A DNA stretch of 64,000 nucleotides. It comes from an uncultured Opitutales bacterium. GTDB lineage: Bacteria; Verrucomicrobiota; Verrucomicrobiia; Opitutales; CAZQIE01. The translations under genes and the position numbers were made by a program. The stretch covers positions 671-64,670 of the forward strand of contig CAZQIE010000007.1 of the NCBI GenBank assembly GCA_964593675.1. Direction: 5' to 3'. Below the pieces are notes generated by a model. The model made no database searches and was not told where the DNA came from. It was given only the letters and a program-made list of their open reading frames with translations. This document shows, piece after piece, positions 22,308 through 61,300 of the stretch (position 1 is the first letter of the stretch; the number at the start of each line of letters is the position of its first letter).

Positions 22308-22322
22308 CTGAACGTTTTCAGC
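22308..22322 (+). promoter_or_regulatory. Glycan-locus box CTGAACGTTTTCAGC
   Basis: AACG lies 71 nt upstream of ATG 22382. See the finding on the recurrent box. Confidence 0.45.
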
Positions 22323-22381
22323 GCCGCTGGTGTTTCCGCGCACCGACCGCGCCCAGATAATGCTCCACGCAATTTCATGCC

Positions 22382-24580
22382 ATGGAGCCTTCACCCCCAG
22401 AAACCTATAACGTCTCCTTTCACGAGTTGGGCAACGGGTCCGCAGACAGCCTGCCCCTGGGGAATGGCGACGCTGCTGCAAATGTCTGGGTCGACAAAAA
22501 GGGGGACATCGGGATCTATCTGGCGAAAAGCGACGCCTGGGACGAACATGGGCGCCTCGTAAAGGTTGGCAGGATCAGCCTCAGTTTCAGACCGAACATC
22601 TTTCTCGACGCCCGTAGGGTCCGGCTCTGCCTTACCATTTCCCGAGCGGAAGTGGGGTTATACTGCCGAAACGGGAAACACGCCGCCTACGTCCGACTGC
22701 GCGTGGATGCGCACCATCCGGTTCTCGTTGCCGAGGTCTTTTCCAAGACGCCCGTCCACGTGACGGCATGCCTGTCGCCCTGGCGGGAAAAGGAGCGCGA
22801 ACTTGAACGTAAAGAGATGCACGGTGTCGATCCGTGGACGTCGAAAATCGTATCCCGTCCCGACAAGCCCTGCACACTGGGCCAACACAGCATTGCCTGG
22901 TTCCGCTCAAACCCGGGCAAAACCATCGCCTCGGAGTCGCTCCGCCGGGAAGGCCTTGAGGGCCAGCGAAACGGCGCCGATGCACTGGCCTACCATTCCT
23001 TCGGGGCCGTCGTATCCGCGAATTCCGCGCTCAAGCGCTCAGGAACGACGAGGCTTGTTTCCTCCACGCGCCTGAAGCGGGCTCAGCTTCGGATCGCCCT
23101 GGGAACTTTCAAGGCTGCACATGTGCCTGAGGCCAAACGGGCCTTGCGGGACCTCAGGCACGTCGCGGAGTCCATCGACCCTTCGGCCACACGCAAAGAG
23201 CACCTGCGCTGGTGGAGGTGCTTCTGGCGGCGGAGCTACATTAACGCGACGAACGCGGAATGGCAGGCCCGCGGGGTGTCCGCTGCGTACGCGCGTCAGC
23301 GTTATCTCAGCGCGTGCGCCGGGCGCGGTTCGCACCCGATCAAGTTCAACGGCTCCCTCTTTACCTGTGATTGGCGCGTCTCAGGGGAAGACTTTGACGC
23401 GGACTACCGGCGCTGGGGCGGCGCCTACTGGCTGCAAAACACGCGCCTGATCTACTGGCCCATGCTTGCGGCGGGCGACTACGACCTGATGCTACCGTTC
23501 TTCCGCATGTATCAGGAGACCCTGCCCGTGGCGAAGGAGCGCGTGCAGAAGTGGTTCGGCCACGCCGGCGCCTGGTTCCCCGAGACGATGTATTTTTGGA
23601 GAGCCTTCAGGATGGTTGACTACGGGCTCGTCCGTGAGGGACGTCCGTTGGCGCACGTCGAGAACACTTACATGGCGCGCTATTGGTCGCCGATGCTTGA
23701 GGTCGCCATCATGATGGCAGACTACGTTGAGCACACCGCGGACTCCGGGTTCCTCCATCGCGTCTTCCTTCCTTTGGCACGCGAGGTGTTGCAGTTCTAC
23801 CTTGCCCATTTTCCACGGGACGCGCACGGCCGCCTGTGTATTGAAAACTCACATACAATCGAGCAGTTCCACCATTGCGACAACCCGCTCCCCGACATCG
23901 CGGGCTTGAAGGATCTCACCGCGCGGGTGCGGAAGCTTTCCAGGCGTTCCGGCGATCGCACGCTCGCCCAGGCGTTTGAGGACATCCTTCCGCAGCTCCC
24001 TCGCGAACCTTTCGAAAACACGCATGTTCTCAAGGTCGCAGACCGGGTGTATGACAAGCCGCGAAACACGGAGAACCCGGAGCTTTATGCTGTTTTCCCC
24101 TTCCGGCATTTCGGCGTGCATCGGCCCCATTTGGAACAGGGGCGCGCGACCTTCCACAAGCGCACTTATCAGGCCACCGGCGGTTGGCGTCAGGATGCCG
24201 TGCAAGCCGCGTGCCTCGGGTTCGCCGAGACCGCCGCGGCGTCCGTGATCCAGAACGCCTTCACGAAATGCGCTTCCAGTTTCCCCGCCTTCTGGGGACC
24301 GAATTTCGACTGGATTCCTGACCAGGACCACGGCTGCGTCATTCAGTTGGCGCTCCAGACCATGCTCCTGCAAAACGTGGACCAAAAGATTCTGCTCTTC
24401 CCTGCCTGGCCACGGCAGTGGGATGTCGATTTCAAGCTCCACGCGCCTCGGCAAACCACGATCGAGGCCTCACTGAGGCAGGGAAAGCTGGAGCGCATCG
24501 AGATTACGCCGCGCTCGCGCCGCAAAGACGTCTTCGTGTGCCTGCCAGATTGCGTGAACGGTTACGCGCTTGAAGGCTGA
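22382..24580 (+). CDS. Glycoside-hydrolase-like protein (DUF5703 N-terminal type)
   Basis: N-terminus SLPLGNGDAAANVWVDKKGDIGIYLAKSDAWDEHGRLVKVGRISL resembles the DUF5703/GH95-like N-domain. No signal peptide. By-eye call. Confidence 0.55.
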   Translation: MEPSPPETYNVSFHELGNGSADSLPLGNGDAAANVWVDKKGDIGIYLAKSDAWDEHGRLVKVGRISLSFRPNIFLDARRVRLCLTISRAEVGLYCRNGKHAAYVRLRVDAHHPVLVAEVFSKTPVHVTACLSPWREKERELERKEMHGVDPWTSKIVSRPDKPCTLGQHSIAWFRSNPGKTIASESLRREGLEGQRNGADALAYHSFGAVVSANSALKRSGTTRLVSSTRLKRAQLRIALGTFKAAHVPEAKRALRDLRHVAESIDPSATRKEHLRWWRCFWRRSYINATNAEWQARGVSAAYARQRYLSACAGRGSHPIKFNGSLFTCDWRVSGEDFDADYRRWGGAYWLQNTRLIYWPMLAAGDYDLMLPFFRMYQETLPVAKERVQKWFGHAGAWFPETMYFWRAFRMVDYGLVREGRPLAHVENTYMARYWSPMLEVAIMMADYVEHTADSGFLHRVFLPLAREVLQFYLAHFPRDAHGRLCIENSHTIEQFHHCDNPLPDIAGLKDLTARVRKLSRRSGDRTLAQAFEDILPQLPREPFENTHVLKVADRVYDKPRNTENPELYAVFPFRHFGVHRPHLEQGRATFHKRTYQATGGWRQDAVQAACLGFAETAAASVIQNAFTKCASSFPAFWGPNFDWIPDQDHGCVIQLALQTMLLQNVDQKILLFPAWPRQWDVDFKLHAPRQTTIEASLRQGKLERIEITPRSRRKDVFVCLPDCVNGYALEG

Positions 24581-24628
24581 CGGCACCCAGCTGCGCGCAC
24601 GCCGACCAGCCCATAGTTTCGGAGAATT

Positions 24629-24654
24629 CAGGTGTGAGCCCACACACCTGTTTG
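24629..24654 (+). terminator. Hairpin CAGGTGTG-N6-CACACCTG followed by TTT, between convergent genes
   Basis: Seen in the sequence. The T-tail is short. Confidence 0.45.
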
Positions 24655-24700
24655 CCGCGAGGCCTGGGCAGCGCGTAGCGTGGGATTTCCGGCCAGCGGG

Positions 24701-28369: not shown

Positions 28370-28375
28370 GAAATT

Positions 28376-28378
28376 CTA
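28376..28378 (-). other. In-frame TAG between the GH2 N-terminal fragment and the GH2 body
   Basis: Plus-strand cta at 28376-28378. Same frame as the ATG at 28555 and the GTG at 28369 (186 nt = 62 codons apart). Confidence 0.9.
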
Positions 28379-28555
28379 GACCCCGTTCAGGCAAATCTGA
28401 GCCCGAACGGGGCTGACAACCTCCGTCGGCTCCCGCCCCCACGTGTTCGCAACTCCGGCTGGGAGCTTGCCGTCGCGAGGCAACGCAGGTTGTGCGGCGG
28501 CAGCAACGCAGGACAGGAGCAGGAGGCAGGGAAGAAGAAGCCGACGTAGGCGCAT
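28379..28555 (-). pseudogene. Signal-peptide-bearing N-terminal fragment of the GH2 gene (59 codons)
   Basis: Translates to MRLRRLLLPCLLLLSCVAAAAQPALPRDGKLPAGVANTWGREPTEVVSPVRAQICLNGV then TAG. It is below the 60-aa cutoff of the supplied ORF track. Confidence 0.6.
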
Positions 28556-28600
28556 TTCTATCAGGGGAGAAGGGGTGAACGCGTGTGAAGGTAGCCGCGG

Positions 28601-29422
28601 CTACGGAGCCACGGGCATGACCTCGTCGTAGGTCAGTCCGAGACGCACTTCATCAAACTTCGCCACCGAGGCCGCTGGCGAAAGGTGTCGCACCTGCACG
28701 GTATCAAACGCGAGTCCGGTTGCGTCCGCCGTTGTCGACACTGTTGCCATCTTGCCGTCCGGCTGATCCCCGCCGACCGTGGGGTTGAGCCAGAGGGTCA
28801 CCGTGTCGGTGCGCGTTTCGTTTTGAACGTCGCCAAACTGCACGCGGAACAGCATGAGGGCAGGCTTTTCGGGATCGAGCGTCCCCGGGCTTCCGCTGGC
28901 GCGATGGTTGTAGCTGGGAAGACGCACGCGCGTATCTTTTGCGTCGAAGTCAAAGATGATGGCGGCACCCCCGGAGGACTGCAGGGTCACCGAACAACGT
29001 CCATTCGGGGCCTGCGGCCGCTGGACGAGGAAGCTGCCCCAGAGCGTCTTGCCGGGCTTGCCGATGAGGCCCTTGGCGTCCACCAGCGAAGCGAACTTGC
29101 CCTTCAGGTCAACGAGGCGCCACGCGCGGTCGCTGGCGCCCGTGATCACGGCTGCCCCACCGCTTGTCGCCAGCTTTTTATCACCGGAGGCGTAGGAGAG
29201 GCTCTCAGCCTGGATGTTGAAGTTGGTCGGCACGCCAGAAGTGGTGGTCCAGGCCCCTCCCCAGCCCTTGCCACCCTCACCGCCGATGAAGGCTTCGCCC
29301 GCAGGATATTCGAAAGACTCCTGCGTGTATGCGTGCACCTGCGAGGCGAAAATCGGGCCCGCCGAAACGGCGCAGAGGGTCATAAGGGATCGGACTTTGG
29401 CAGCAACGGATGTCGGTTTCAT
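28601..29422 (-). CDS. Secreted protein consisting of one copy of the ~260-aa GWGGxW...FDExRxG domain
   Basis: Signal peptide MKPTSVAAKVRSLMTLCAVSAGPIFASQVHA. ESFEYPAG...GGKGWGGAW...KTLWGSF...FDEVRLGLTYDEV aligns by eye with two modules of the giant protein. Confidence 0.7.
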   Translation of the reverse strand: MKPTSVAAKVRSLMTLCAVSAGPIFASQVHAYTQESFEYPAGEAFIGGEGGKGWGGAWTTTSGVPTNFNIQAESLSYASGDKKLATSGGAAVITGASDRAWRLVDLKGKFASLVDAKGLIGKPGKTLWGSFLVQRPQAPNGRCSVTLQSSGGAAIIFDFDAKDTRVRLPSYNHRASGSPGTLDPEKPALMLFRVQFGDVQNETRTDTVTLWLNPTVGGDQPDGKMATVSTTADATGLAFDTVQVRHLSPAASVAKFDEVRLGLTYDEVMPVAP

Positions 29423-29472
29423 GCGTCCCTTATCATCCGGTTTCCGGCCCCCGCTATCAACGTGCGCCCGCG

Positions 29473-29486
29473 CGAAACCGTTGACA
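29473..29486 (-). promoter_or_regulatory. Glycan-locus box TGTCAACGGTTTCG
   Basis: 61 nt upstream of the start at 29422. CGTTGA follows 17 nt after AAC. Confidence 0.5.
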
Positions 29487-29512: not shown

Positions 29513-31603
29513 CTACGGCTGAGACGCCGCTTCCTTTTTCGCGTCGGCTTCGGCGGCTTTTGCACCTGCTTCCGGATGGCGGTTCGCAAGCACCTGACCG
29601 TCGTCCTCCGGATCGGGAACGGCCGACTCGAGCTTGCGGATCAACCGCACGACGTCGCGGCACGCGCCGATACCAAACCAGAAGATGTTCACCACGCAGA
29701 TAATCAGGGGAACAATGATGTTCTGGATGAGGATGTAGCGCCACCACCAGACATCCGGCCAGCGTTGGAAGCCGAGGTTCCAGATCAGGGCCACGACGAA
29801 CATGACGCTCCAGAATGTGGAGTAGAAGAACACGGAGTAGGCGAAGATCTTGTCCCACTTGGTGTAGTGCTCGTCGACCTGGAGGAAGCGGGCGAGCCAG
29901 CCACGCTTATCAAGGATCGCCGCCGCCTTGCTTTCCGTGCCATCGAGATCCTCTTTCACCGCATAGGCCCCGCGATGGAGGAGCTTGTCCATATTGTGGG
30001 GTTCCCGGCAGGTGAGGATGGAAGTGATGATGTAGACGGAACTGGCGAGACCGGCCGCGATGAGGCTCATAATCTGGCCGTTCACGGGAAACCGTCCGGC
30101 ATTGGCGGCAGCCCAGTCGCGGACCCCTTCCCAGGGCGCGTGCGCCGCGCACAGCGGCTGCAGCTCCTTCCAGAAAGTTTGCAGGCCCCACCCGATAAGG
30201 GCACAACCGGCGCCCGTGATTAATGCCGCCCAGGCAGCTTTGGTGGTGCCGCGTTTCCAGTAGAGCCCCCCGAAAAACACCACACCTGCGCCACCGAGGG
30301 AGATCGAGCCGATCAGTGCCATGAGCAACTGGAGGTAGTCCGACGGCCGGTAAATCATGCTGAAGCCAACCGTAAAGGCGCCCGCGCCAAAGACCGCCAA
30401 CCGCAGCCAGCGCACCTGACGGTCCGGCTCAATGGGCTTGTTGCGGATCGGCAGAAGGACGTCCTGAATGAAAGTTGACCCGAGGAACATGCAGTAGGCA
30501 CCCATGCCCGCGATCGACCGCAGGAGGCCGATCGCGACGAAACACCCGCGGACGCCTGTCGGCAACAGGTGGCCCAACGCACTCGGCATCTGCATCTGCG
30601 TGCGAAGTTGTGCATTGTCGATGTGGGACAGCGACGCCGCGACAGAGGCCTGCTGCTGGGCAAAATCGGGATGCCGAAGGATCGTGAAAGCACCCACCGC
30701 TACCAGTGAGGTCAGGGCAACCACGCCGAAACCGCGCCACGTGCCGAGCACCGCAGCCATGCGGCTTTCGTGAGCCGTAGCCGCCGAGGCCGAACCGTTT
30801 CCGCGGAAGTAATAGAGCGCCAGCATGAACCCGATTACAATGAACCAGCCGTTGAAATCCTGTCTTGCCGCGATGTCCAACGGGTTCACGTAAGAGCTTC
30901 CCGCCGAACCCGACAGGAGCGCCTGCTCAACCTGATCCAGGCGAACCAGCGGCAGCGTGAAGACGCCGAGGATGGCCGTGATGACCACAAGGTATAAGGC
31001 GCCGGAGATGACATACTCCAGGCTGTCAGAGATGATCACGCCGACCTGGCCGCTGACCATCGTGGAGGTGATGGCCAGAGCCGTCATGGCGACCATGACC
31101 ACGAAGATTGTGGGAACCTCCATGGAGAACAGGGCGATCTCAGCCGGCAGTCCCAGGAAATACACGAAAAACCGCGCCGTTACACCTGGCACGACACCGA
31201 AGAAAAAGAGTCCGGACGTGAAGCTCAGCACGCTGGCAAAGATGCGGAGCCCCTTGCTGTACCGCTGCTCCAGGAACTGATTCAGCGTATAAACGCGCGT
31301 CTCGCGCATGCGGAACGTCACAAACCCCGAGATCGTGATGAACAGCCAGATCAGCCCGGTGAAGGCGCCCCAAAACTGCATCGAAAAGCCGGCCCGGGAG
31401 AAGACCTCCATCATCGAGACCGTCCCCATGACGCCCGCCGTGGCCTCGCCCGTGGCGGTGGCGAGCAGGAAGCGCCCCGCTCCACGCCCGGCGGCCAGGA
31501 AGCCGGCAACGCCGCGCATGTAGCGGCGCAGGTACACCGTGAACGCCGTGGTCAATACCAGCGGGAGTAGCATGATCACCAGATCCAAAGTAGTCAGTTT
31601 CAT
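29513..31603 (-). CDS. Sodium:solute symporter (SSS) family transporter
   Basis: 696 aa and highly hydrophobic with many predicted TM helices. The N-terminus LDLVIMLLPLVLTTAFTVYLRRYMRGVAGFLAAGR is typical of SSS proteins. Confidence 0.8.
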   Translation of the reverse strand: MKLTTLDLVIMLLPLVLTTAFTVYLRRYMRGVAGFLAAGRGAGRFLLATATGEATAGVMGTVSMMEVFSRAGFSMQFWGAFTGLIWLFITISGFVTFRMRETRVYTLNQFLEQRYSKGLRIFASVLSFTSGLFFFGVVPGVTARFFVYFLGLPAEIALFSMEVPTIFVVMVAMTALAITSTMVSGQVGVIISDSLEYVISGALYLVVITAILGVFTLPLVRLDQVEQALLSGSAGSSYVNPLDIAARQDFNGWFIVIGFMLALYYFRGNGSASAATAHESRMAAVLGTWRGFGVVALTSLVAVGAFTILRHPDFAQQQASVAASLSHIDNAQLRTQMQMPSALGHLLPTGVRGCFVAIGLLRSIAGMGAYCMFLGSTFIQDVLLPIRNKPIEPDRQVRWLRLAVFGAGAFTVGFSMIYRPSDYLQLLMALIGSISLGGAGVVFFGGLYWKRGTTKAAWAALITGAGCALIGWGLQTFWKELQPLCAAHAPWEGVRDWAAANAGRFPVNGQIMSLIAAGLASSVYIITSILTCREPHNMDKLLHRGAYAVKEDLDGTESKAAAILDKRGWLARFLQVDEHYTKWDKIFAYSVFFYSTFWSVMFVVALIWNLGFQRWPDVWWWRYILIQNIIVPLIICVVNIFWFGIGACRDVVRLIRKLESAVPDPEDDGQVLANRHPEAGAKAAEADAKKEAASQP

Positions 31604-31740
31604 GGATGCTGAGCCTCGATAGGGAAATAGGGTTTGACCGTCTTTGGTGCCTCAACGGGGTCCTGGCGTTTGAAGCAGTGGGATTTCAGCCGTCTAGTTC
31701 ATTCTGCACAGGGCAGGCCTCCCGGAAATGCTGCAACAGG

Positions 31741-31753
31741 CGAAACCGTTGAT
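31741..31753 (-). promoter_or_regulatory. Glycan-locus box ATCAACGGTTTCG
   Basis: 147 nt upstream of the start at 31603. On the coding strand it is preceded by a small hairpin GGGCTaaaAGCCC plus TTTT (31774-31790). Confidence 0.5.
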
Positions 31754-36765: not shown

Positions 36766-36891
36766 GGGTAGACGGGGTTGCTCGCGATTGCGGACAAAAC
36801 CGGGCTTGCGGGGTGGGCCGGTTGTCCAGCGCGGGACTATCTCCGCTTCTGATCTTATATTCTTAGGGACAAACGGGAACGTTCGCCACGT

Positions 36892-36904
36892 TGAAACCGT
36901 TGAC
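36892..36904 (-). promoter_or_regulatory. Glycan-locus box GTCAACGGTTTCA
   Basis: 136 nt upstream of the start at 36765. Two more AACG copies follow at 9-nt spacing, and CGTTCC lies 17 nt after AAC. Confidence 0.5.
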
Positions 36905-37055: not shown

Positions 37056-37069
37056 GTGAACGCTTTTTT
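37056..37069 (+). promoter_or_regulatory. Glycan-locus box variant GTGAACGCTTTTTT
   Basis: 94 nt upstream of ATG 37153. This is the weakest match in the set. Confidence 0.35.
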
Positions 37070-39884: not shown

Positions 39885-39959
39885 TTTTTTGAAAAGGGGG
39901 ATTTGGAAATCGACGTTATTATCCGCGAAACCGCGGTCCGTAGAAATTCATGGCGTTGT

Positions 39960-39971
39960 GAAAGCGTTGAG
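39960..39971 (-). promoter_or_regulatory. Glycan-locus box CTCAACGCTTTC
   Basis: 84 nt upstream of the start at 39884. Flanking AACG copies lie at 39954-39957 and 39975-39978 (plus-strand cgtt). Confidence 0.45.
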
Positions 39972-42247: not shown

Positions 42248-42307
42248 AAGGAGGGATTTTCGCCCTATCTTATGCGATCCATCCCAACGGATGAATTTCG
42301 CTGCTTT

Positions 42308-42320
42308 CGAAAGCGTTGAC
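42308..42320 (-). promoter_or_regulatory. Glycan-locus box GTCAACGCTTTCG
   Basis: 70 nt upstream of the start at 42247. A second half-copy, CCACCGTTTTC, lies at 42321-42331. Confidence 0.5.
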
Positions 42321-42357
42321 GAAAACGGTGGTCACGGTCTCCGGGCACGCATCGCCT

Positions 42358-46600: not shown

Positions 46601-49600
46601 GTTCGTGCCGTCAATGCGGCCAACAGCGAAAGCAGCGCCCGCGGCGGCACCGCCAGCCGTACCGGAGCGGTCAGCCTGAATGATCGCGTAATCGTCGGTT
46701 CCTGCATTGTTGTCTGTGATTACCGCAGACAGCCAGAGCGTCTTGTTTGCGGCGCCCACCCGCGCGTTGGCGTCGATATAGCCAGCCAGACCGAGGCCCC
46801 CGGAAGGCGATGTGTCGAGCATGCGGGTCGCGATAGAGTTGTTCAAACTCGCCTGATTGCCGGCCGCGACGACTGTCGCTCCGGCTTTTGAAAACTGCGC
46901 CGACCCGTTCCCGTCGACGGTCGAAGTGCTGTAGTTGAAACTCAACCACGAACCGCCCCAGCCGCTCCCGCCGTTCTGGCCGGCATTCGTCGCGTGGTTT
47001 GCAAGAACGGCGCCTCCGGCGTAGTCGAAGTTTTCCACCACAAGGGCCGCAGGTGCGGTCACCGTGATGGACGCCTCGTTGCTGTAGGCGGAGCTTCCGG
47101 CGTTGCTCAGCGCTTTCACGCGGTAGTAGTAGGTCGCGCCCGGAGTGAGCCCCTCGTCCGTGTAGGACAGCGCTCCTCCGGTGCCGAGCGAGAACGGGAT
47201 CTGGCTGGAAACCACCGCATACGTGCCACCGACGCCGAGCTTACGCTCCACCGCGAAACCGGTCTCGTTTGTCCCGTTGTCCGTCCAGGTAAGATCGACG
47301 CGCGAACTGCCCACCACGCTCGCGGCGAGCCCGGAAGGTGCGGTCGGAGCAACAGCCACGGCATTTATGCGCAGGCGCGCGGCGCCGTTCTGCCAGTCGG
47401 AGCCTTCCCCTATGATCTGCACCGTCGCATCTTTCTCGCAGAAGCTGGCATCCGGGCTGGTCGTCGTGTCGCCCACAAGGATGAACGTGAGCTTCTTTGC
47501 GCCGGTGCGTGTATTGATGAACGTGACAAGCGGAGATCCTGCCTCGCCCGAGACCGTGAGCCTCGTACCCTTCGCCATGGAGGGCGAGACCGTCAGCTTC
47601 CCGATCAGCGTGCACTTTGCTTCAACCACGCCATTGGCGCTGGCGTTGGCCGGCGCGTTATTCCAGGTGATGGAGGTCTCGGACCAGCCGTCGAGGCTGT
47701 GGTCCGTCATCCCGTATACGCGAACCACGCGGTCTACGCTGGCGGTGCCGACGGAGACCAGTTCCAGCGCGGCACTCTGCACAGTTCCGGTGAAGGAGGA
47801 GGCATCAAATTTGACGTAGCTCTTCAGGTTCAGCGCAGTCCCAATATCCGGCGGCACGTAGCCCACCCGGAGGATGGTTACCCCGTTCTGGTTGCTGTCC
47901 CCCAAAGTGCCGCCGTCATAGCGTTGCACAAAGGAGTCCTCTGCCGCCAACAAGCGCACCGTTCCGGTCGTCCAGGTCGTATCGCCCGCAACGTCGCAGG
48001 GGGCGGACGTGCCGCCACCGGCGTTGGCGTTTACCGCGCTCACGCGGAAGTAATAGGTCGTGTCGGACGAAAGTCCCGTGACGGTGTGCGTGATGAGGCC
48101 GCCCGTGGCTGAGCTCGTGGTGCTCGTCTTGGTTGTCAGAGTGGACCATGTCCCGCCGCTCCCCATCTTGTACTCGATCAGGAAGCCGGTCTCGTTGACC
48201 GAATTGTCGGTCCACTTCAGCGCGATTGAGGAGTCGTTCGTGGCGGTCGCAAACAGCGACGACGGCGAGGTTGGAACCGGATTGGGAAGCGTGGAGACGG
48301 ACGCTGATACACTGCTGTAGGCGGAATTCCCGAAGTCGTTCTGCGCGCGGACGCGGAACACGTAAGCCTGGTTGGGCAGCAGGCCGGTCGCTGAAAGGGA
48401 TGTGGTGCCCGCCGTGACCGTCGCCAGGTCCACCCACGAGCTTCCGGCGTTCGTGCTGCTCTGGACCTTAAACGTCATTTCGTTGGTGGAGTTATCCGCC
48501 CAAACCAAGTCGATCCTGCTGTTCGAGATCACGGTAGCCGTAGGCGCACCGGGCACCGCGGGTGCCGCAAGGGCCGCAGATGGCGTCGCGGATGCTTCCG
48601 CTGAATACGCGGAGTAGGCGTCAAGCGTGAGGACCCGCACACGGTAGTAATACGTGGTTCCCGCGACGACGGTCGTGTCGGCATACACGGTGGCAGCGGC
48701 CGCAAGGCGGGCGATTTGCGCAAAGGTCCCGCCTGCCCCTTGTTTGCGCTCAACAAAGACGTCCGTGATGTTACTGGCCGAGTTTGTCCAGGACAGGTTT
48801 ATTTGGCTGCTCGTTACGGCATTGGCCGCAGGCGACGCCGGCGCAGGAGGCGCGCTCACCGTGCCCGCCAAGTACGACACCGTTCCGCTGTAAGCGGAGT
48901 CCCCGTGCATGTTGAACGCGCAGATCCGCCAAGAGTAGTTTGTGCCCGCGGTGAGCGCGTTTGCCGCATAGGAAGTCGTGTTCTCAGGCAGGATCGCCAA
49001 CGTGGTCCACCCGGTCCCCGTGTTCTGCTCGAGGCGATATCCCAGTTCGTTCACCGCATTGTCGGTCCAGGAGACCACTGCACGGGAAGCCGACGGATTT
49101 GTATATCCCAGGGCCGTCGGGGCAGCAGGGATTGGAATATAGGGAGAGAGCACCGACGCGGGGATGACCTCGTCGGGCTGCTCCGCGTTGGGTCCCCCGC
49201 CGTTCGGCTTTGACCAGGCCAGGGTCGCGCAGTCCTTGCCGTCATGGCTCGCAACCAGCAGCTCAAAATAATACGACTGCCCCGCGGTGAGAGTGACCCA
49301 CGAAACGGGAATAGCAGGCGTCTGGCCGCTCGAGTTCTGGTCGGCGCGGGAATTCCAGACCTGGTACGTGCCATTCACGATTTTCCCGATCGCCTGGGAT
49401 CGCAAATTCGCCGGGCTGGCATCCGAGGAGAGCCAGAACTCGCCGTTGAAGTTACCAGCCACCCAGAACTTATACTGCCCCGTAACGGGCGCGGTAATGT
49501 ACCCGCGGATGCGTTCGCCGAATTTCCCAGTCGTGTTGCGGGGCGCATTGGCTCCATTTGCAACGAAGGACCTTCCATGGGGCTGGTTCGGGTAGTCCGC

Positions 49601-51994: not shown

Positions 51995-52103
51995 GTTTGG
52001 GGGTAGAAACTGGGTAGAAGGCGCCGAAGGGCAGACGAACCCACACCTCCGGTCGCTAATGGATTATTTCACCACCTGCCCGCTTTGGAACGACATCGTC
52101 TGT

Positions 52104-52116
52104 CGAAACCGTTGAC
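52104..52116 (-). promoter_or_regulatory. Glycan-locus box GTCAACGGTTTCG
   Basis: 119 nt upstream of the giant-gene start at 51994. CGTTCC lies 18 nt after AAC. Confidence 0.5.
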
Positions 52117-52969: not shown

Positions 52970-52971
52970 GA

Positions 52972-53967: not shown

Positions 53968-56159
53968 AGGAGCGAAATTTTGTGGCCGTTGCGCAACGTG
54001 ACGAGCCGCGGCAAGGCCGCAGCCGCAGGTCTTCCGCTGCACAAGCCTAGTGTTTCGTCGGAGCCCCCCGTGACGTCCAGCCTAACCAGCCGATCGTCCT
54101 CAAAGACGACATCGACGCGGTGCCCGCCTTCGACAACCAGCCCTTGCGCCGAACACGACCGCCAGCGCTGAGGAAGGCCGGGGAGCACATGGAGGGTGTT
54201 GCCGGCGCGGTGGACAAGCATTTCAGCAACGGCTGCCGGGACCATGAGACCGGCTTCCAGCGTGAAGGCCGCATTGGCGGCACCCGCGGAGTTTCCCGAG
54301 GCCGCCAAAATCCCCACCCGGAAGGCATCCCCGTTGACCGTAAACGTATTCCCGGACCGGAAGCCCCGAAGGTAAATCTCGAGCATCAGATCCGCCATTT
54401 CGCCCCTGCCCGCGCGGGCTGCGAGGATAGCCAGGTATGGAAAGGACCACGAAGCGAATTCACCCGTGCCGAGCCGTGTAAGGTGGTCCAGCGAGGCCTG
54501 GATCAGCGCGTCATCGTCCGGGTTTGCACGGTCCAGTTCATTGAGCGGGAAAACTGGGAAGAAGTGTCCGAAGTGCCGATGCGAAACCCAAAGGTCGCGG
54601 TCCGCAAAAAGGGACAGGCCCGCGTTCGAGACCTTGGGGACCACGAGCTTTTCCTTGAACCGCACCCAACGGGGCTGCAGCGAAGCGTCGGTTTCCCACG
54701 CCGCCAGCCGGCCCAAAACATGGTGGAGACAGGAGAGGGCGTAGGTGGAGTCATGGCCCATGAGCATACGCCCGTCCTCGAAGACCTCCGGCGAATGTGT
54801 CAGCGGGACGTGCAGGCGCCCATCGGCTCCGGGCTCGGCAACGTGTTCGTAGGTCGCTGCCACGCGTCTCAGGAATGGCAGGACCCAGTCAATCAGCCGC
54901 TTCCTGTCCTGGGTAAATTCGAAGTACCAGCAGAAATCCGCCGCAACGAGAAGCTCGCAACCTGTAAGGGCGTTCCAAAAACACCAGTCAACGGGGACGC
55001 CGTAGCCGTCCGGGCTCATGCAGAGCGGCACATGCAGGACATCCTCTACTCCATAAAACGCACGCCCACGTCGCCCGAAAGCCTCCAGCAACGCGGCGTA
55101 GCGCCCGAGGTACGTGTCAACCAGATCGAAACAGCCGAACCGGAAGGCCGCCCAATAGCAGGCCTGCACATTGAGGTTGTTGTGCAGGTCCCCGCACCAA
55201 GGGGGCATCTCGACGTCGCTGTTGAAAAGGCCTTGCAGCGTGATCGTGCTTCCACCGCGACGACAGTTGCAGAACAGTTTGTAGCGTTCCGCATCCATGG
55301 CCTCCTTCAGGCGCTCCTCTGGAACTGTGATGTCCGCGCCGCTCCAGCACTGCGCCCACAAGGCGAGATGCTCCGCCCAGGCCCGTCCGCGGAAGCGCGC
55401 ATGGGTCTTCAGGCGTTCACCGTTCGCCGCGGCGAGCGCGTCTGCCTCGCTGCTCGCGCCCACGCCCATAGTGCAGAGAAGCCTGTAATGGCTGTCCGAG
55501 CGGATTTCCTTCAGGGAGACGACGGCAACCTTGGTCCCGGAAAATGCCTGCATGAAGTGCCTCACGCCCTGCCCCGGCTGTTCGTGCGGCGGCTCATACC
55601 CCATCCGGGACAACGCCTCCAGCCCGGGCTTGTCCAGGCGCCAGCCGTCGAAGTCCGCCACAGCCGCCGCACACACGGGGCCTCGGAGCGTCAGATCCAG
55701 AACATCATTGTGCCGCCCCACCCAAAGCTCACCGGCAACCTTCACGCCGGCGGCGTCTGCACACTGGAAGCGCGCCCGGCCGGCCCCGATATCTATGCTC
55801 CCGGTAAAACTGGCGGGCTCAAACTTCAGCCCCACGGACAGAGCCAAAGCGGGCAGGCGCGTCCGTCCGAAGCCTGGAGGGATGCCCCCCGAATGGTCAC
55901 AAGCGTAGAAGCCCTCAGGATGCTTCCGCACCTGGGCGTAAGTTGCCGGCAACAGGCCCGATGTCGAATCGCGTTCTTCCCAAAGACACGGATCGTCGAG
56001 GGTCAGGCGCAGCCTGGAACCTTCGAAATAGCACAGGCTCCCAAGCCCGCCGCTCCCGACAAAAAGCGCTTCCGCGCACGTCTTCGGAACGCGTTCGAAA
56101 AGGACTGGGGACCGCAGAGGCTGAAGCCGTCTCGCAGCGACTGGAGGGCGGGACCGCAT
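53964..56159 (-). CDS. GH95-like / six-hairpin glycoside hydrolase-like protein
   Basis: N-terminus ALFVGSGGLGSLCYFEGSRLRLTLDDPCLWEE resembles the GH95-type N-domain. 731 aa, no signal peptide. By-eye call. Confidence 0.5.
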   Translation of the reverse strand: MRSRPPVAARRLQPLRSPVLFERVPKTCAEALFVGSGGLGSLCYFEGSRLRLTLDDPCLWEERDSTSGLLPATYAQVRKHPEGFYACDHSGGIPPGFGRTRLPALALSVGLKFEPASFTGSIDIGAGRARFQCADAAGVKVAGELWVGRHNDVLDLTLRGPVCAAAVADFDGWRLDKPGLEALSRMGYEPPHEQPGQGVRHFMQAFSGTKVAVVSLKEIRSDSHYRLLCTMGVGASSEADALAAANGERLKTHARFRGRAWAEHLALWAQCWSGADITVPEERLKEAMDAERYKLFCNCRRGGSTITLQGLFNSDVEMPPWCGDLHNNLNVQACYWAAFRFGCFDLVDTYLGRYAALLEAFGRRGRAFYGVEDVLHVPLCMSPDGYGVPVDWCFWNALTGCELLVAADFCWYFEFTQDRKRLIDWVLPFLRRVAATYEHVAEPGADGRLHVPLTHSPEVFEDGRMLMGHDSTYALSCLHHVLGRLAAWETDASLQPRWVRFKEKLVVPKVSNAGLSLFADRDLWVSHRHFGHFFPVFPLNELDRANPDDDALIQASLDHLTRLGTGEFASWSFPYLAILAARAGRGEMADLMLEIYLRGFRSGNTFTVNGDAFRVGILAASGNSAGAANAAFTLEAGLMVPAAVAEMLVHRAGNTLHVLPGLPQRWRSCSAQGLVVEGGHRVDVVFEDDRLVRLDVTGGSDETLGLCSGRPAAAALPRLVTLRNGHKISLL

Positions 56160-56208
56160 GACGCCAAGCCTAAGGCTGGGCCAGCGTCCCGCACAAAGCC
56201 TTGAGCAT

Positions 56209-56220
56209 CGAAAGCGTTAA
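56209..56220 (-). promoter_or_regulatory. Glycan-locus box TTAACGCTTTCG
   Basis: 59 nt upstream of the start at 56159. Confidence 0.45.
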
Positions 56221-56238: not shown

Positions 56239-57063
56239 TCAGGACCTACGGCGCCGCAGAGCCACGCCCAAAGCCGCGGCACCCGCAAGGAGGGCATACG
56301 TGGAAGGCTCAGGAACCGGCGTGCCCAGGTTCTGTCCGCTGGCATCAAAATACAAGTTGTCGATCCACTGAGCGTCCTGCGCCGTGCCCGAACCCGCGCT
56401 CCGGGCGGCAAAGTAGCGCAGCGTGCCTACCGCGGAGTCCGAGGCAAACTGCACGCTGCTGGCGATCGCTGTCTGGGCGGAGTAGGAGCCGCCTTGGATG
56501 TAGACGTCACTCGTGCCGGCGTTGTTGTTCAGCACGATCCACATGTTGTAGAGCGTCCCAGCGTCGATGGTCCCATTCGCGATGGTCGTCTGGGTGAAGG
56601 ACGAGCCCGCACGGGTGCGAAGCGTGTAGGTTGGGCCCGAGCCTGAAAGCTCGATAATCGCACCGCGCACCGAGGCCGCGGAATTGAAATTGAAGACGCC
56701 GCTCAGATCTGAAAACCCGAAAGAAAACGCCACCGCATCGGAGCCGGTGTTATCTACCTGAAACTGCATGAAGAGCGTCCCGGTAGAGCCCACCGTGACG
56801 CTCTGCGCAGCGCCAAAGTCGAGGCGACTGCGGTAATTCGCGGAGGTCCACTTCACAGCATTTCCCCCACCGAACGCAGCCACCGTCGGGTCCGCGCCCG
56901 CGTTGCCCAGCCAGGTTGTGCTGACGGCGGAGGTCTGCCCGTTCAAGGCCCCCGGCGTATCGCCGTTGAAATTATCCACGAGAACGAAAGCGGCATTCGC
57001 AGCAAGCGGCACCAGGAGCGAGACCGCGGAAAGACCAAGCTTCGACAGGCAATGGGTAGTCAT
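56239..57063 (-). CDS. PEP-CTERM sorting-domain protein with lectin/LamG-like N-terminal domain (paralogue 2)
   Basis: Collinear with 39051..39884 (AFVLVDNFNGDTPGALNGQTSAV...GTLRYFAARS...WIDNLYFDASGQNLGTPVPEPSTYALLAGAAALGVALRRRRS). Confidence 0.85.
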   Translation of the reverse strand: MTTHCLSKLGLSAVSLLVPLAANAAFVLVDNFNGDTPGALNGQTSAVSTTWLGNAGADPTVAAFGGGNAVKWTSANYRSRLDFGAAQSVTVGSTGTLFMQFQVDNTGSDAVAFSFGFSDLSGVFNFNSAASVRGAIIELSGSGPTYTLRTRAGSSFTQTTIANGTIDAGTLYNMWIVLNNNAGTSDVYIQGGSYSAQTAIASSVQFASDSAVGTLRYFAARSAGSGTAQDAQWIDNLYFDASGQNLGTPVPEPSTYALLAGAAALGVALRRRRS

Positions 57064-57118: not shown

Positions 57119-57129
57119 CGAAACGTTGC
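57119..57129 (-). promoter_or_regulatory. Glycan-locus box variant GCAACGTTTCG (one nt shorter)
   Basis: 64 nt upstream of the start at 57063. Confidence 0.4.
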
Positions 57130-57157
57130 CCAAAAACGAGGCAAATCTAACGTGCGT

Positions 57158-58180
57158 TTACGTTGTAAAGCCAACCTTCCACTTCCCCCGGATGTAAATC
57201 TCCTTGGGGCTCTCCGGAATGCCCCGTTCATTGCTGCTTGCCTGCGCCACGACTGCATCCACGGCCGCTGCCGCAACAAGCTTCTCCAGCGGGTCGACGC
57301 CCGACCAGCCTTCGACGTCCGGTGAGAGCGCCGTATGGATGAGGGCGACGTCTTCAGGCACACGCACGCCGATGCTCTTCAGGGCATCAAGGACGCGATA
57401 ATCCCGACACACGACAACCTGTGGCTTGTGCTTCTTGAACCAGTCCAGAAAGCTCGCGACGTACTCAGGAGACGGCAGGTTCGGGCGGTGGATGGGTATG
57501 CGCTTGTTCTCCGGCAAGGTCGCATTCATGAGCCCGTACCGCATCGAGTAGCATTGCTCATAGGACTCATCCACAACCTTGGCCACCGTAAGGCCCACGG
57601 TCGCACGCCGAAGCTTGATCGCCCGCCGCAGGGCCTCGGACACGTTCGCGGCCTCGAAGATGTCCGCACGACTCAGGGAAGGACGGAACACCCCGCGCCC
57701 CAGACACACGGCTGAAAGCTGGTCCCACGGCAAACACAGGCGCGAGCGTGGCGCCCGCATCGGGGGGATGAGCACGCACCGGATTCCCCGCGCCACCAGG
57801 ATCTTCCCCAGGCGCGATTGCGTCATCTGCGGCTGTCCCAACCAAAAGTTCTCCAGCTTGTAGCCCAATTGCAGGGCCCGGTTCTTTGCCCCTTCCCAAA
57901 AATCCCGCACCCACGGCGTCTTTTCGAAAAAGTCCTTCTCCGGATATGGGTTTACCCAGGCAACGACCTCCGAGTCTTGCGGGCGCCTTCCCGCGCGGAT
58001 GTGGGCCATAAGGGCAGCGACCTGCGCGTTCGGGCAATAGCCCACCTCTTCCGCGACTTTCTGGATGCGTTCGCGGGTGGCGACGGGGATCCGCGGGTGG
58101 TTTCTCAGCGCGTACGAGACGGTGGAGACGGTCACCCCGGCTGCCCGGGCAACAGTGTGTAACGTAGGACGCGGTTCCAT
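57158..58180 (-). CDS. LacI-family transcriptional regulator
   Basis: ATG at 58180. HTH TLHTVARAAGVTVSTVSYALRNHPRIPVATRERI followed by a periplasmic-binding-protein-like sugar-binding fold. Confidence 0.85.
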   Translation of the reverse strand: MEPRPTLHTVARAAGVTVSTVSYALRNHPRIPVATRERIQKVAEEVGYCPNAQVAALMAHIRAGRRPQDSEVVAWVNPYPEKDFFEKTPWVRDFWEGAKNRALQLGYKLENFWLGQPQMTQSRLGKILVARGIRCVLIPPMRAPRSRLCLPWDQLSAVCLGRGVFRPSLSRADIFEAANVSEALRRAIKLRRATVGLTVAKVVDESYEQCYSMRYGLMNATLPENKRIPIHRPNLPSPEYVASFLDWFKKHKPQVVVCRDYRVLDALKSIGVRVPEDVALIHTALSPDVEGWSGVDPLEKLVAAAAVDAVVAQASSNERGIPESPKEIYIRGKWKVGFTT

Positions 58181-58284
58181 GCGCTCTTGGGTGGGCGCAT
58201 GATGCCGACAATCCCGCCGCCCCCGCAATTCTATTTCATCATCTCGGAAGCGGCTTGAGGCTTACTAAGCCACGTCACATGGCG

Positions 58285-59424
58285 TCAGCGCGTGTAGCGG
58301 CAACGGTCCTGCACGAGCTTCATGAACCAGCGCATGCGCCCGATGCCCGTCCCCGCCACGAGTGAACCCGCCGTCGCGATACGCAGCCCACCGGTGCCAC
58401 CGGCCTTCCTGAAGGATTCCTCGACGCTCGCCGCAATCTCCTCGGCCGTGCCGTTCCGCAGCAGGAAGGGCGGCACATGCCCCCAGATATACGCCTTGGG
58501 CATTTTCTCACGGATCAGCGCCACGTCGATCGTCGGCCCGTAGTTGACGGCGTTGATGCCGAGCGCGCGCTGCTGGTCCAGAAGGTGGCTCATCGCGCTA
58601 TCGGAATGCTGAAAACGCCAGGCGTCACCGGGGGCCATTTCCGCGAGCACGCGTTCAAGCACCGGGTAACAAAACTCCTTGTACAGGGACGGGTTGAACA
58701 GGGAGCAGTTGTCGTCCGTGATCCACCAGCCCCGATCCTTGTTGCCTGAAAAGCCCCGGAAGAACGTGTTCAGCTCTATCATCTTGCGCGCCAGCACATC
58801 CGCAAACCGGGAAACGAGCTCCGGCTCATCATAACACCACATGAAGAGGACTTCCGGATTGATGACGGACGTCATGACCGTGGCTGGGCCGCGGCTTCCG
58901 GTTCCCAGTTTCGGCAGCGGCTTTCCGGCCTCCTTGCGGGCCTCCCATTCTTTCAGATACGGGGCCGGAAGCGCCCATTTGGTCACGTCCGTCGCCTCGG
59001 CCTCATCGAGGATCGCGGCAAAAGCGGCGGGATCGTCAGTCACGGGGACGAACCAGGGCGTTCCGCCTTCGTGGTACGCAAACTCGCACCGGAAAAGGTT
59101 TTCGATGCGGCGCGGCTCATTCTCCCACGTATCCTCATCAAAAAACGCCTTGCCGACTCCGGCGAGTGTGATGCGGTTTGCCGTGCGGTGCAGTTCGTCC
59201 CGGTAAGCCTTCTCGCGATAGTACCGCAATGTACTGGGCACGCTCAGGAACTCGAACAACCAGTGATCGTCCGGCGAGAAGCTGAGCGCACAGCGTGGCT
59301 TGTCCAAGGTAAAGCGATCACAAACCGCGTTCTCTTGCCAGAACGCGCTGACATTAAGGTCTTCGGTGAGCGCCATGAACTCGGGCTCAACAATGCCGGT
59401 TTCGGGAAACGTTGTGTCTTTCAC
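58285..59424 (-). CDS. Uroporphyrinogen-decarboxylase (URO-D/MtaA-like) fold protein 1
   Basis: SRGPATVMTSVINPEVLFMWCYDEPELV, DDNCSLFNPSLYKEFCYPVLERV and HSDSAMSHLLD resemble the URO-D family. By-eye call. Confidence 0.45.
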   Translation of the reverse strand: MKDTTFPETGIVEPEFMALTEDLNVSAFWQENAVCDRFTLDKPRCALSFSPDDHWLFEFLSVPSTLRYYREKAYRDELHRTANRITLAGVGKAFFDEDTWENEPRRIENLFRCEFAYHEGGTPWFVPVTDDPAAFAAILDEAEATDVTKWALPAPYLKEWEARKEAGKPLPKLGTGSRGPATVMTSVINPEVLFMWCYDEPELVSRFADVLARKMIELNTFFRGFSGNKDRGWWITDDNCSLFNPSLYKEFCYPVLERVLAEMAPGDAWRFQHSDSAMSHLLDQQRALGINAVNYGPTIDVALIREKMPKAYIWGHVPPFLLRNGTAEEIAASVEESFRKAGGTGGLRIATAGSLVAGTGIGRMRWFMKLVQDRCRYTR

Positions 59425-59505
59425 GGGTGATGGGGATTTGAAGAAGTTGCGCGAGGACCAGGCACACGGTTGCTAAGCCAGCGGGACCGCCGTAGGCACG
59501 GAGCT

Positions 59506-61128
59506 TCACACCTCGACCACCGCCGGCATCGTGAAGGGCGCCGTCGCGATGGGCTGCGTCTCGCCAAGCCAGGCCCGCACGGCCGCGATCTGCGATACGG
59601 CGGGGAAGCCGTACGTCGCGTAAAAGTTCGGCAGGTGCGGCAGCTCGTACAAGGTGTACGGATTACCGAAGGAGGTGAAAACGGCGTTCGGGCAACGGAG
59701 CCAGAAGCCACGCCAGAACGGCATGATGAGGTCCCCCGTCAGGCGCACCGTGCCCATGTGGGAATGCGGGACGACGGCAAAGTTCACGAAAACTGCGTCG
59801 AACTCCGGCGCCTTCTCGATGAGCCAGCTGTGCGACGGGTTGTCGACGTGCTCGACGCTCATCCCGCGCTTGCGCAATTCCTCGTCCACAAGCGGGAGCG
59901 ACGAGGTCATGTGCAGGTGGAACCCCGGATAACGGATCGTAACCGTGAGGACGCGCGCGCCAGGCTTGAGCTTAAGCGGCGTGGCTGCATTCCGGCGCAG
60001 CAGCGTCACACTCTGATCCGCCATCTGCTGGGCTGCTTTTTCCGCGTTTGCACGCTCCTGCGGCGAGGCCATCGGAATGCTCAGGCGTTCGTGCAGACCC
60101 AGGCGCGCCTTCATTTCCAGCACGCGGCGCACGGACGTCCGCAGGCGTTCCTCAGTAAGTTCTCCTTCCCGCAGCGCACGCTTAAGACGCGCGAAATCCT
60201 GCCGTGCATCCGAAAACAGGAAGACGTCCGAGCCCGCCAGGACGTTGCGCAAAGCAAGGTCCTCGGCGGGGCACCGCGAGGTGAGTCCGATCATCGGCGC
60301 GGCATCGGAAACGAGCACGCCGTCGAACCCGAACTCCCCGCGCAGCAAGTCCATTTGAAGCCGCCGGCTGAGCGTTGCAGGCATGGCCTCGGCAACGTGG
60401 CGGCATTGTTCGTACGCCGGCAGGCTGATATGGCCAGCCATCACGCTCATCACCCCGGCATCGAAGGCGGCGCGCCACATGGGCCCAAAATAGCTGCGCC
60501 ACTCATACATGGACAGGCCGTTGACAGACGTGCAGAGGTGTTGGTCACGGTCATCTATGCCATCGCCGGGCCAGTGCTTCGCCGTCGCCGCCACCCGTCC
60601 GTGTTCCTGGATGCCGCGTATCCATGCGCTCAGGATGGGCACGGCGCGCTTGGGATCGTCACCGAGGCTCCGGATGTTTGTAACCGGGTTATTGACGTTC
60701 CGGTTGAGGTCGGCGACCGGCCCAAACGTCCAGTGTATGCCGTGGGCGCGCCCATCCTGGCCCGTGGAAAGCCCCATCTGGTAGGCCAGCTCCACCGAGT
60801 TCGCGGCGCCGCACGCCATCGCCCACGGAAAGTCCACGCCGCCATCCGCAATCATGCACCCGGCGCCGTGCTCCAGATCCGAGGCCACGAGCACCGGAAT
60901 TTCCGAAGCGCCCTGTATGGCCGCAGTCTTGGCAAGCCAGTCCGCCGAATTGTGGCGGGAAAGGAACACGCTGCCCACCGGCACGTCGCGCAACAGCGCC
61001 GCCCATTGCTCCGGGGTGTATTTGCGGTCCTCAGGGCACAGGAGATGACCGAGGCACTGGTCGTCGGACATGCCGCTCAAGGTCTTTTCGACCCACTGTT
61101 TTGCGGTGGCAGAGAGTGGCGGGATCAT
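59506..61128 (-). CDS. Glycoside hydrolase family 3 (NagZ / beta-glucosidase-like)
   Basis: IPVLVASDLEHGAG, KHWPGDGIDDRDQH, GVLVSDA. No signal peptide. Confidence 0.8.
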   Translation of the reverse strand: MIPPLSATAKQWVEKTLSGMSDDQCLGHLLCPEDRKYTPEQWAALLRDVPVGSVFLSRHNSADWLAKTAAIQGASEIPVLVASDLEHGAGCMIADGGVDFPWAMACGAANSVELAYQMGLSTGQDGRAHGIHWTFGPVADLNRNVNNPVTNIRSLGDDPKRAVPILSAWIRGIQEHGRVAATAKHWPGDGIDDRDQHLCTSVNGLSMYEWRSYFGPMWRAAFDAGVMSVMAGHISLPAYEQCRHVAEAMPATLSRRLQMDLLRGEFGFDGVLVSDAAPMIGLTSRCPAEDLALRNVLAGSDVFLFSDARQDFARLKRALREGELTEERLRTSVRRVLEMKARLGLHERLSIPMASPQERANAEKAAQQMADQSVTLLRRNAATPLKLKPGARVLTVTIRYPGFHLHMTSSLPLVDEELRKRGMSVEHVDNPSHSWLIEKAPEFDAVFVNFAVVPHSHMGTVRLTGDLIMPFWRGFWLRCPNAVFTSFGNPYTLYELPHLPNFYATYGFPAVSQIAAVRAWLGETQPIATAPFTMPAVVEV

Positions 61129-61287
61129 TAGGAAATGCGGTTGTTTCTGGGGCTTCAGGAGCCCGGCAAGCGAGCAGACAGAGGGCGAGCAGGCTGTGTC
61201 AAACGGCGAATAATGGGGGCCCCAGCGGCTTGGTTAAGATGCGGCAATTTTGCACTTTTTAATCCGGAGTTCAGAGCCCAGGCCCGT

Positions 61288-61300
61288 CGAAAGCGTTGAT
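61288..61300 (-). promoter_or_regulatory. Glycan-locus box ATCAACGCTTTCG
   Basis: 169 nt upstream of the start at 61128. Confidence 0.5.

Follow-up and report, generated by a model that had tools for sequence, protein, structure and literature searches.

Introduction

Regulators of the LacI family insert their hinge helices at an operator CpG, and GalR, a member of the family, works through an operator located before the -35 element. Among 1303 LacI-family motifs, 96% are even palindromes of 16-22 nucleotides (nt) with CG at the dyad, and LacR, GalR and EbgR belong to the 4% with odd-length motifs; Verrucomicrobia were not covered by that survey (Ravcheev et al., PMC4052901). CcpA activates ackA, pta and ilvB from catabolite-responsive elements (cre) that lie upstream of -35 and represses from overlapping cre, and its action depends on the helical face (PMC3463425). 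Here we describe a short asymmetric box that recurs upstream of glycan-degradation genes in a 64-kb stretch of DNA from an uncultured Opitutales bacterium (contig CAZQIE010000007.1, positions 671 to 64,670; hereafter the window), together with the LacI-family protein that very probably binds it.

The control of the very large glycan-degrading gene sets of Verrucomicrobia is almost unstudied. Our literature search found no operator or regulon study for Verrucomicrobia, and a search for the box strings matched only primers.

Results

A co-oriented box marks a regulon of nine, possibly ten, transcription units

The window has 63% GC, and 8.1% of it is intergenic. Judged by its proteins and the nearest relatives of these, it belongs to Verrucomicrobiota, in or close to the family Opitutaceae. 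The 12-mer TCAACGSTTTCG (also written TCAACGSTTTCR) occurs there eight times with no more than one mismatch, every copy on the minus strand. Its core, AACGSTTTC, is found nine times against 1.43 expected, and none of 100 shuffled sequences reached nine. The ninth exact AACGGTTTC, at 50183, falls within the open reading frame (ORF) of a 2778-aa protein (43658-51994), where an in-frame chance copy of the core spans 50182-50193. We trained a position weight matrix (PWM) on the eight sites (29473, 31741, 36892, 39959, 42308, 52104, 56209 and 61288). These score 20-27 bits, and the rest of the 64 kb scores at most 15 bits; the information is limited to 12-13 positions. All eight boxes are intergenic (p ~2e-9) and lie on the coding strand of the following gene, with 50-160 nt between the end of the box and the start codon. 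Because their flanks are mutually unrelated, the sites are not recent duplications.

Three boxes have the sequence TCAACGGTTTCG. The copy at 29473-29484 precedes a unit encoding a 273-aa secreted protein and a glycoside hydrolase (GH) of family GH2, with an ATG at 29422, 51 nt past the box. The copy at 31741-31752 stands before an SSS transporter gene (29513-31603) and is followed by a -35-like TTTCCG (31723-31728) and a -10-like CAGAAT (31701-31706). The third, at 52104-52115, precedes the genes for the 2778-aa protein and a trehalase-like protein, with the corresponding hexamers TTCCAA (52085-52090) and AATAAT (52063-52068). TCAACGGTTTCA at 36892-36903 lies before the genes for a secreted 900-aa protein (ATG 36765) and a GH42 enzyme (TTCCCG, 36874-36879; TAAGAT, 36852-36857), and TCAACGCTTTCA at 39959-39970 before that for PEP-CTERM protein 1 (39051-39884; TTTCTA, 39941-39946; GATAAT, 39918-39923). 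TCAACGCTTTCG occurs twice, at 42308-42319 before a heparinase II/III-like gene (40013-42247; TTCATC, 42290-42295; TAAGAT, 42267-42272) and at 61288-61299 before a unit encoding GH3, URO-D-like and LacI proteins (TCTGAA, 61270-61275; CAAAAT, 61247-61252). Finally, TTAACGCTTTCG at 56209-56220 precedes a unit for a GH95-like protein, a 2-hydroxyacid dehydrogenase and a TIM-barrel isomerase, with an ATG at 56159, 50 nt past the box, and promoter hexamers TTGTGC (56191-56196) and TAGGCT (56167-56172), also on the minus strand.

Two sites carry further sequence features of their own. At 42308 (42305-42325) the TTTCG half and its flank form a perfect 12-bp palindrome, GCTTTCGAAAGC, unique to that site, and the box at 36892 is overlapped by TCAACGGTTTCAACG, as is the box before the TonB-receptor gene of the related loci L161 and L077 described below.

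Three weaker sites are inseparable from background on sequence score alone. The variant TGAACGTTTTCA at 22309-22320 on the plus strand, before a DUF5703/GH95-like gene (22382-24580), scores 9.4 bits. It is followed by TTTCCG at 22333-22338 (+13, counting nt past the box) and GATAAT at 22356-22361 (+36), which is the exact downstream geometry of the strong sites, and its core is identical to the variant beside LacI homologues in two other genomes (loci L168 and L170). On these two grounds we judge the 22309 box to be probably functional. A degenerate GCAACG-TTTCG with a 1-nt deletion (57119-57129, minus strand) lies between the LacI stop codon and the gene for PEP-CTERM protein 2, with TTGAGA at +13 and the PEP-CTERM ATG at +56. 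The order LacI, box, PEP-CTERM-type gene recurs in the related locus L001, and the 57119 box is a possible member of the set. The GH13 site GTGAACGCTTTTTT (37056-37069, plus strand) was rejected: it scores below 8 bits, has no TT at +13 and is followed by an in-frame ATG (37108) only 40 nt on.

The original prediction had proposed 11 sites, always on the coding strand of the downstream gene and defining one regulon. The constant strand is borne out at all eight strong sites, and the 11 reduce to these eight, the probable 22309 and the possible 57119. Pfam confirmed its gene map (GH2, GH42, GH13, two GH95-like, GH3, heparinase II/III-like, trehalase-like, SSS transporter and two PEP-CTERM proteins). 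It had also seen no box upstream of gdh, cheR, purB, queG and other named genes; we likewise found no match of at least 16 bits in 1-22.3 kb, and the first 22 kb of the window hold housekeeping and chemotaxis-like genes. The extra AACG and CGnTTTC half-copies that it listed are not above chance. We also sought auxiliary or half sites within 80 nt of each box and found no consistent one. The box is genuine and marks a regulon of nine, possibly ten, transcription units over about 40 kb, and the proposed tie among the hydrolases, the SSS transporter, the PEP-CTERM proteins and the 2778-aa protein holds for these units.

Promoter-like elements at a fixed distance from the box

We aligned nine sites, the eight strong ones and 22309, on the box. 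Downstream of it, AT content falls to 0.23-0.25 at +19 to +24 and peaks at 0.79 for hexamers that start at +35 to +38, with a smaller peak at +9 to +13. We defined a -10-like hexamer as one that has A at position 2 and T at position 6 and matches TATAAT at four or more of the six positions. Such a hexamer starts at +35-37 in eight of the nine sites (intergenic background 2.1%; p ~4e-13): GATGAT, CAGAAT, TAAGAT, GATAAT, TAAGAT, AATAAT and CAAAAT at strong sites and GATAAT at 22309. TT at +13/14, present in 7/9 sites (p ~9e-8), opens a weak -35-like hexamer, and the spacer between the two elements is 16-18 nt. Their offset from the box varies by only 1 bp either way, and the 12-nt stretch that separates the box from the -35 position is GC-rich.

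A generic promoter scanner that uses the E. coli consensus detected only one of the nine promoters, TTGATA-17-GATGAT at 29460..29432, because the -35 hexamers are weak. Nor did a search for a promoter that precedes the box or includes it, with the box itself as -10 or -35, reveal a conserved partner element. A terminator-like hairpin (31788-31776) just upstream of the 31741 box fits separate transcription units. The simplest reading of this arrangement is a sigma-70-type promoter whose transcription start site would lie about 49 nt past the box, placing the box at about -59 to -48. It would then lie upstream of the core promoter, with no overlap, at a fixed distance and on a fixed helical face relative to -35 and -10, as expected of a class-I-type activator if the putative start site is right. 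We also considered an UP element, a site at -40 to -60 for the C-terminal domain of the RNA polymerase alpha subunit (alpha-CTD). The position fits, but TCAACGSTTTCG is about 42-50% GC and has no A-tract, and this candidate was set aside.

The first ATG after the box lies at +51 at 29422, where it opens a good signal peptide, at +50 at 56159, and at +48 and +51 in the related loci L001 and L164; none is closer. These start codons are 7-10 nt past the -10-like hexamer (29422-29437, 56159-56172, L001:4066, L164:9542), which leaves no room for a Shine-Dalgarno sequence and suggests that several of the mRNAs are leaderless. Several Verrucomicrobia loci have LacI genes that likewise appear leaderless, among them L028, L054 and L078 with TAACGT-N8-ATG.

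The box travels with a clade of LacI-family regulators

The only DNA-binding protein among the 35 window proteins is a LacI-family regulator encoded at 57158..58180 on the minus strand (Pfam PF00356, E = 2.9e-16; hinge AALMAHIR), whose helix-turn-helix (HTH) is GVTVSTVSYALRN; its gene lies among those that the box precedes. Its relatives form a large clade, found only in metagenome-assembled genomes of Verrucomicrobiota, with the HTH consensus AGVxxxTVSxALRNHPRIP; the best LacI match in the genome collection is 39% identical. A metagenome scan with the two closest LacI sequences gave no match, and a second scan returned only relatives of at most 40% identity; a homology search with the 77-aa HTH fragment yielded a single, uninformative hit.

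We scanned 160 loci (2.1 Mb; here numbered L001 and so on), each centred on a member of this clade, with the PWM. Matches of at least 20 bits were intergenic only at the LacI gene of L077. All others fell within ORFs, and exact matches in L044, L068, L074, L079, L125, L130 and L156 were set aside on that ground (for example, codons for L-N-G-F). The two boxes of L077 share their orientation with a divergent MFS transporter gene and a TonB-dependent receptor gene, respectively; the first is 18 nt from the LacI start codon, on its upstream side, and the second lies past the LacI gene. L161 keeps both boxes and L162 the first. At the TonB-receptor gene (L161:4688-4768, L077:11281-11300) a second TCAACGG overlaps the box 9 nt later (GTCAACGMTTTCAACGGWTC), and in L161 an additional box-like GTCAACGCGTTCCA lies 69 nt upstream. 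The closest homologue, P0002 of L001, is 48% identical to the window protein and adjoins a heparinase-like ortholog (49% identity) and a PEP-CTERM-type gene. Two copies of a variant box, ATCCAACG(G/A)TTAAGAT, flank the P0002 gene, and the ortholog of the window's heparinase-like gene sits behind this variant.

The recognition helices, in LacI numbering, read T-V-S-T-V-S-Y in the window protein, S-V-S-T-V-S-M in that of L077 and S-V-T-T-V-S-Y in P0002. The window protein is only 35% identical to the L077 protein (V17/S18) and 48% identical to P0002 (V17/T18), yet the exact box is common to the window and L077. Because the box is shared by the two proteins with the same residues 17 and 18, despite their lower identity, we chose further homologues by V17/S18. 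Four proteins (P0044, P0096, P0116 and P0119) were picked on these residues alone, blind to the box, and all four carry T(C/G)AACG(G/T)TTTCA beside the LacI gene: TCAACGGTTTCA for P0044 (L164), TCAACGTTTTCA for P0096 of Oleiharenicola lentus (L166), and TGAACGTTTTCA for both P0116 (L168) and P0119 (L170). All four boxes occupy the gap upstream of LacI and have the orientation of the divergent target gene, and the flanks have diverged; TT is present at +13/14 in L166, L168 and L170, and TC in L164. These four proteins are about 50-57% identical to each other and to the L077 protein and form one orthologous group. In L077, L161, L162, L168 and L170, the box is 13-29 nt before the LacI start codon and abuts a putative -10 element, CCAAAT.

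Conservation in related genomes, which the original prediction had proposed as a check, is therefore found: eight other assemblies have the box, or a co-varying form of it, next to a LacI-subfamily gene (L077, L161, L162, L164, L166, L168 and L170, and the variant in L001). The box-bearing loci differ in their other genes, which include those for MFS, FAD oxidoreductase, TonB receptor, GH16 and heparinase-like proteins, and LacI is the sole gene common to them. The motif also co-varies with recognition-helix residues (LacI positions 17, 18 and 22), with P0007 as an exception. Seven regulators with V17/S18 have T(C/G)AACG.TTTCR, P0002 with V17/T18 has CCAACG.TTAAG, and other helix types have other motifs. 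A helix-to-operator code for the clade looks derivable. On this evidence, the protein encoded at 57158..58180 very probably binds the box.

Other paralogue groups have their own 12-14-nt motifs, such as GCTTAACGTTAAGC, TTGTACAGTTCAA and CTAACWWTAGAC, which overlap the -10 of the LacI gene. Since the groups use differing motifs, a generic AACGNTT search around all LacI genes was not informative. Group-specific operators overlap the LacI -10 in the LacI upstream regions of L021, L029, L036, L038, L046 and L055 and in L019, L022 and L023. Examples are TTGGCA-N-TTATACAGTTCAA and the paired GCTTGACGTTAAGC and GCTTAACGTTGA, 12 nt apart (starts 24 nt apart). In paralogue group C, the target-site geometry is ambiguous.

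The box as a shifted, polar pseudo-palindrome

Set in a symmetric frame, the box reads TCAA-CGST-TTCR against TCAA-ACGT-TTGA, and the spacing of the outer blocks is kept. The invariant CG occupies positions 5-6, one base off the dyad; the only symmetric positions are A3A4/T9T10, and the promoter-proximal half is yGAA rather than TCAA. Asymmetry is confined to the inner CGTT in L168, in L170 and at 22309, where the outer blocks (TGAA...TTCA) are fully symmetric. A distant LacI-family protein, P0091 (L165, 68% GC), has the same helix, SVSTVSY, and a perfect palindrome, TCAAACGTTTGA; at L165:150-190, two canonical LacI palindromes, TCAAAGGTTTGA and TCAAACGTTTGA, stand 13 nt apart before an MFS-LacI operon. 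From this alignment the box would be a one-base-shifted derivative of a TCAAACGTTTGA-type palindrome.

The asymmetry had been taken in the original prediction to exclude a textbook LacI operator. The box is indeed asymmetric, and with only 12-13 conserved positions it lacks the even 16-22-nt palindrome with CG at the dyad; the exclusion itself is overturned by the presence of the box at LacI genes and by the palindrome of P0091. One and the same polarity toward the target gene recurs in the P0044 group, at each of the two sites in L077 and in L001, and throughout the nine sites of the window. Since it is kept across all of these, the polarity is evidently selected and not noise.

Neighbouring genes

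The two paralogous PEP-CTERM proteins of the window (about 275 aa; 39051-39884 and 56239-57063) have similar N-termini, FVLVDNFDGDT and FVLVDNFNGDT, and each is encoded behind a box. L001 has a PEP-CTERM-type gene at the matching position after its LacI gene. The box-controlled GH3 unit and the DNA immediately before it hold two genes of the uroporphyrinogen decarboxylase-like family (URO-D, PF01208), at 58285-59424 and 61360-62385. They are odd for a glycan locus and may encode methyltransferase- or decarboxylase-type enzymes that act on a modified sugar. The gap upstream of the GH2 ORF (28370-28600; GTG 28369) contains an apparent signal peptide, MRLRRLLLPCLLLLSCVAAAAQ. The GH2 gene may thus start further upstream than the ORF call, which would fit one operon with the 273-aa gene. 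In the left part of the window, a chemotaxis-like cluster (5586-15912) encodes CheR, CheB, a histidine kinase, an HD-domain response regulator, a hybrid PAS kinase and a CheA-CheW fusion; this cluster has no DNA-binding output and no box.

Discussion

We propose that the regulator encoded at 57158..58180 binds the 12-bp pseudo-palindrome TCAA-CGST-TTCR, whose displaced CpG would give the site its polarity. A single copy would occupy about -59 to -48, centred at about -54, before at least nine sigma-70-type promoters, several of them leaderless, with the TTTCR half facing the promoter 12 bp from the -35 position. The bound dimer would contact or bend toward RNA polymerase in class-I-like activation, as CcpA does from cre upstream of -35; we infer such contact or bending because the box does not overlap the core promoter and the spacing is rigid within 1 bp. 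The nine units would form one glycan-degradation regulon. In the related loci, a regulator bound to this site at the divergent LacI promoter would repress its own gene. If the LacI protein binds the box, activation has an even chance or marginally better. The whole proposal, a LacI operator with an off-dyad CpG that works by RNA polymerase contact and not by occlusion, comes out somewhat below even. We hold more tentatively still the extension to the entire Verrucomicrobiota LacI clade, whose members would be orientation-dependent class-I-type activators. Their operator, polar through its displaced CpG, would stand once, at about -54 and with a constant half toward the promoter, before each promoter of large glycan-degradation regulons, many of them with leaderless mRNAs, and from it the regulators would also repress themselves, a dual logic like that of LysR proteins.

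Several observations weigh against activation from an upstream LacI operator. LacI-family members are nearly all repressors (PMC4052901), a symmetric dimer offers no obvious cause for the polarity, and at the CCAAAT -10 of related LacI genes the protein would repress its own gene. The -10 and -35 elements and the start site are themselves predicted from sequence: the -35-like hexamers are poor, equally so at promoters that have no box, and do not discriminate, and the -10-like element is clear in the window genome only, not in higher-GC relatives. The comparative evidence has its own limits. The four blind-test matches come from one orthologous group and are thus a phylogenetic footprint, not independent events, just as orthologous sites in divergent gene pairs are not independent. 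P0007, which has V17/S18 and A19 in place of T19, shows no box in its 7.5-kb contig. Furthermore, the window LacI gene's own promoter (58181-58285) has a -10-like TAGAAT and no box, unlike every related locus examined, in which the box adjoins the LacI promoter; the window gene may instead be co-transcribed from the 61288 unit.

The same protein and operator could also serve repression, relieved when a glycan inducer releases the regulator, with the dimer acting from -54 by contact with or displacement of alpha-CTD, by bending or by blocking read-through. GalR at an upstream operator inhibits galP1 through polymerase contact. The weight of repressors in the family favors this reading, as do the repressing position of the box beside CCAAAT in five related loci, the operators that overlap the LacI-gene -10 in other paralogue groups, and CcpA itself, which represses the lev operon from an upstream cre (PMC3463425). 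Yet none of the nine window sites overlaps the core promoter, no second operator lies nearby for looping, and neither occlusion nor a roadblock needs an orientation that is fixed and a position held within 1 bp. We consider repression only slightly less likely than activation, a tentative alternative at about the standing of the clade-wide extension. Another transcription factor, encoded outside the window, might bind the box, with LacI nearby merely as a fellow member of glycan loci. An asymmetric site with a fixed orientation would indeed be more usual for a protein that binds as a monomer or in tandem than for a LacI dimer. This idea is nonetheless unlikely, given that the box tracks LacI recognition-helix residues and not locus content, that all four P0044-group homologues picked by those residues carry it, and that its palindromic relative TCAAACGTTTGA is a textbook LacI operator.

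The original prediction had offered the invariant, co-oriented AAC as the -35 element of an extracytoplasmic function (ECF)-type sigma promoter with CGTT as its -10, and CGTTGA or CGTTCC does occur 17-18 nt past AAC at 29473, 36892 and 52104, as it reported. The other five of the eight sites have no CGT there, and the sigma-70-like pair (TTnnnn and nAnAAT) lies further downstream: the TATAAT-like hexamer at +35-37 and the ATGs at +50/51 fit a start at about +49, not +22. As it also noted, no sigma factor gene is present, and we found no sigma or anti-sigma gene among the window proteins; an ECF promoter would moreover leave the box at LacI genes elsewhere and its co-variation with the HTH unexplained. 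We consider this reading very improbable. Least probable of all is that the box acts in the RNA of 5' leaders, or that it reflects chance similarity together with duplicated promoter cassettes. Co-orientation with genes is equally expected of an RNA element, and TCAACG...CGTTGA could pair at 29473. However, the whole window has no Rfam match at gathering score, no pairing partner is conserved across sites, two genes begin 50-51 nt past the box with a -10-like hexamer between, and in divergent pairs the box lies upstream of both genes; the unrelated flanks argue against duplication.

The regulon marked by the box extends over about 40 kb and comprises at least nine transcription units. Through it, two PEP-CTERM proteins, a 2778-aa protein and hydrolases with no assigned substrate are linked to a single regulator, which we predict to be the LacI-family protein. 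The rule that relates helix residues to operator has already predicted sites in four other genomes, and ATGs 48-56 nt past the box suggest that leaderless mRNAs are common in the phylum. If the one-way upstream placement reflects activation, the system would show how a family of symmetric dimers evolved polar, position-locked control.

Comparison with described systems places the box among LacI-family operators, with a form and a fixed, one-way placement that are uncommon in the family. Like canonical LacI/GalR systems (PurR, or L165 with TCAAACGTTTGA), it has a protein with an HTH and hinge helix encoded beside its targets, an invariant CpG, TCAA...TT outer blocks, and an operator that co-varies with recognition-helix residues 17/18. 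Canonical operators, however, mostly have an even length of 16-22 nt and are palindromic about a dyad CG, whereas the box conserves only 12-13 nt, has its CG one base off the dyad, and shows the same asymmetry at each of its sites and in several lineages of the regulator. Two natural operators, lac O1 and gal OE, are also pseudo-palindromes, with halves that differ, but LacI and GalR work there through two or three operators and looped DNA; the box is a single operator per promoter with no auxiliary site. The ackA cre is reportedly centred near -56.5, close to the -54 predicted for the box. The nearest parallel in form and placement is CcpA with cre in Bacillus subtilis, a LacI-family dimer at a degenerate pseudo-palindrome with a central CG upstream of -35 (PMC3463425). 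CcpA differs in being global, in needing HPr-Ser-P and in having mostly repressing sites at many positions, whereas the box system has a regulator local to its cluster, and all of its known sites share one upstream position and one orientation.

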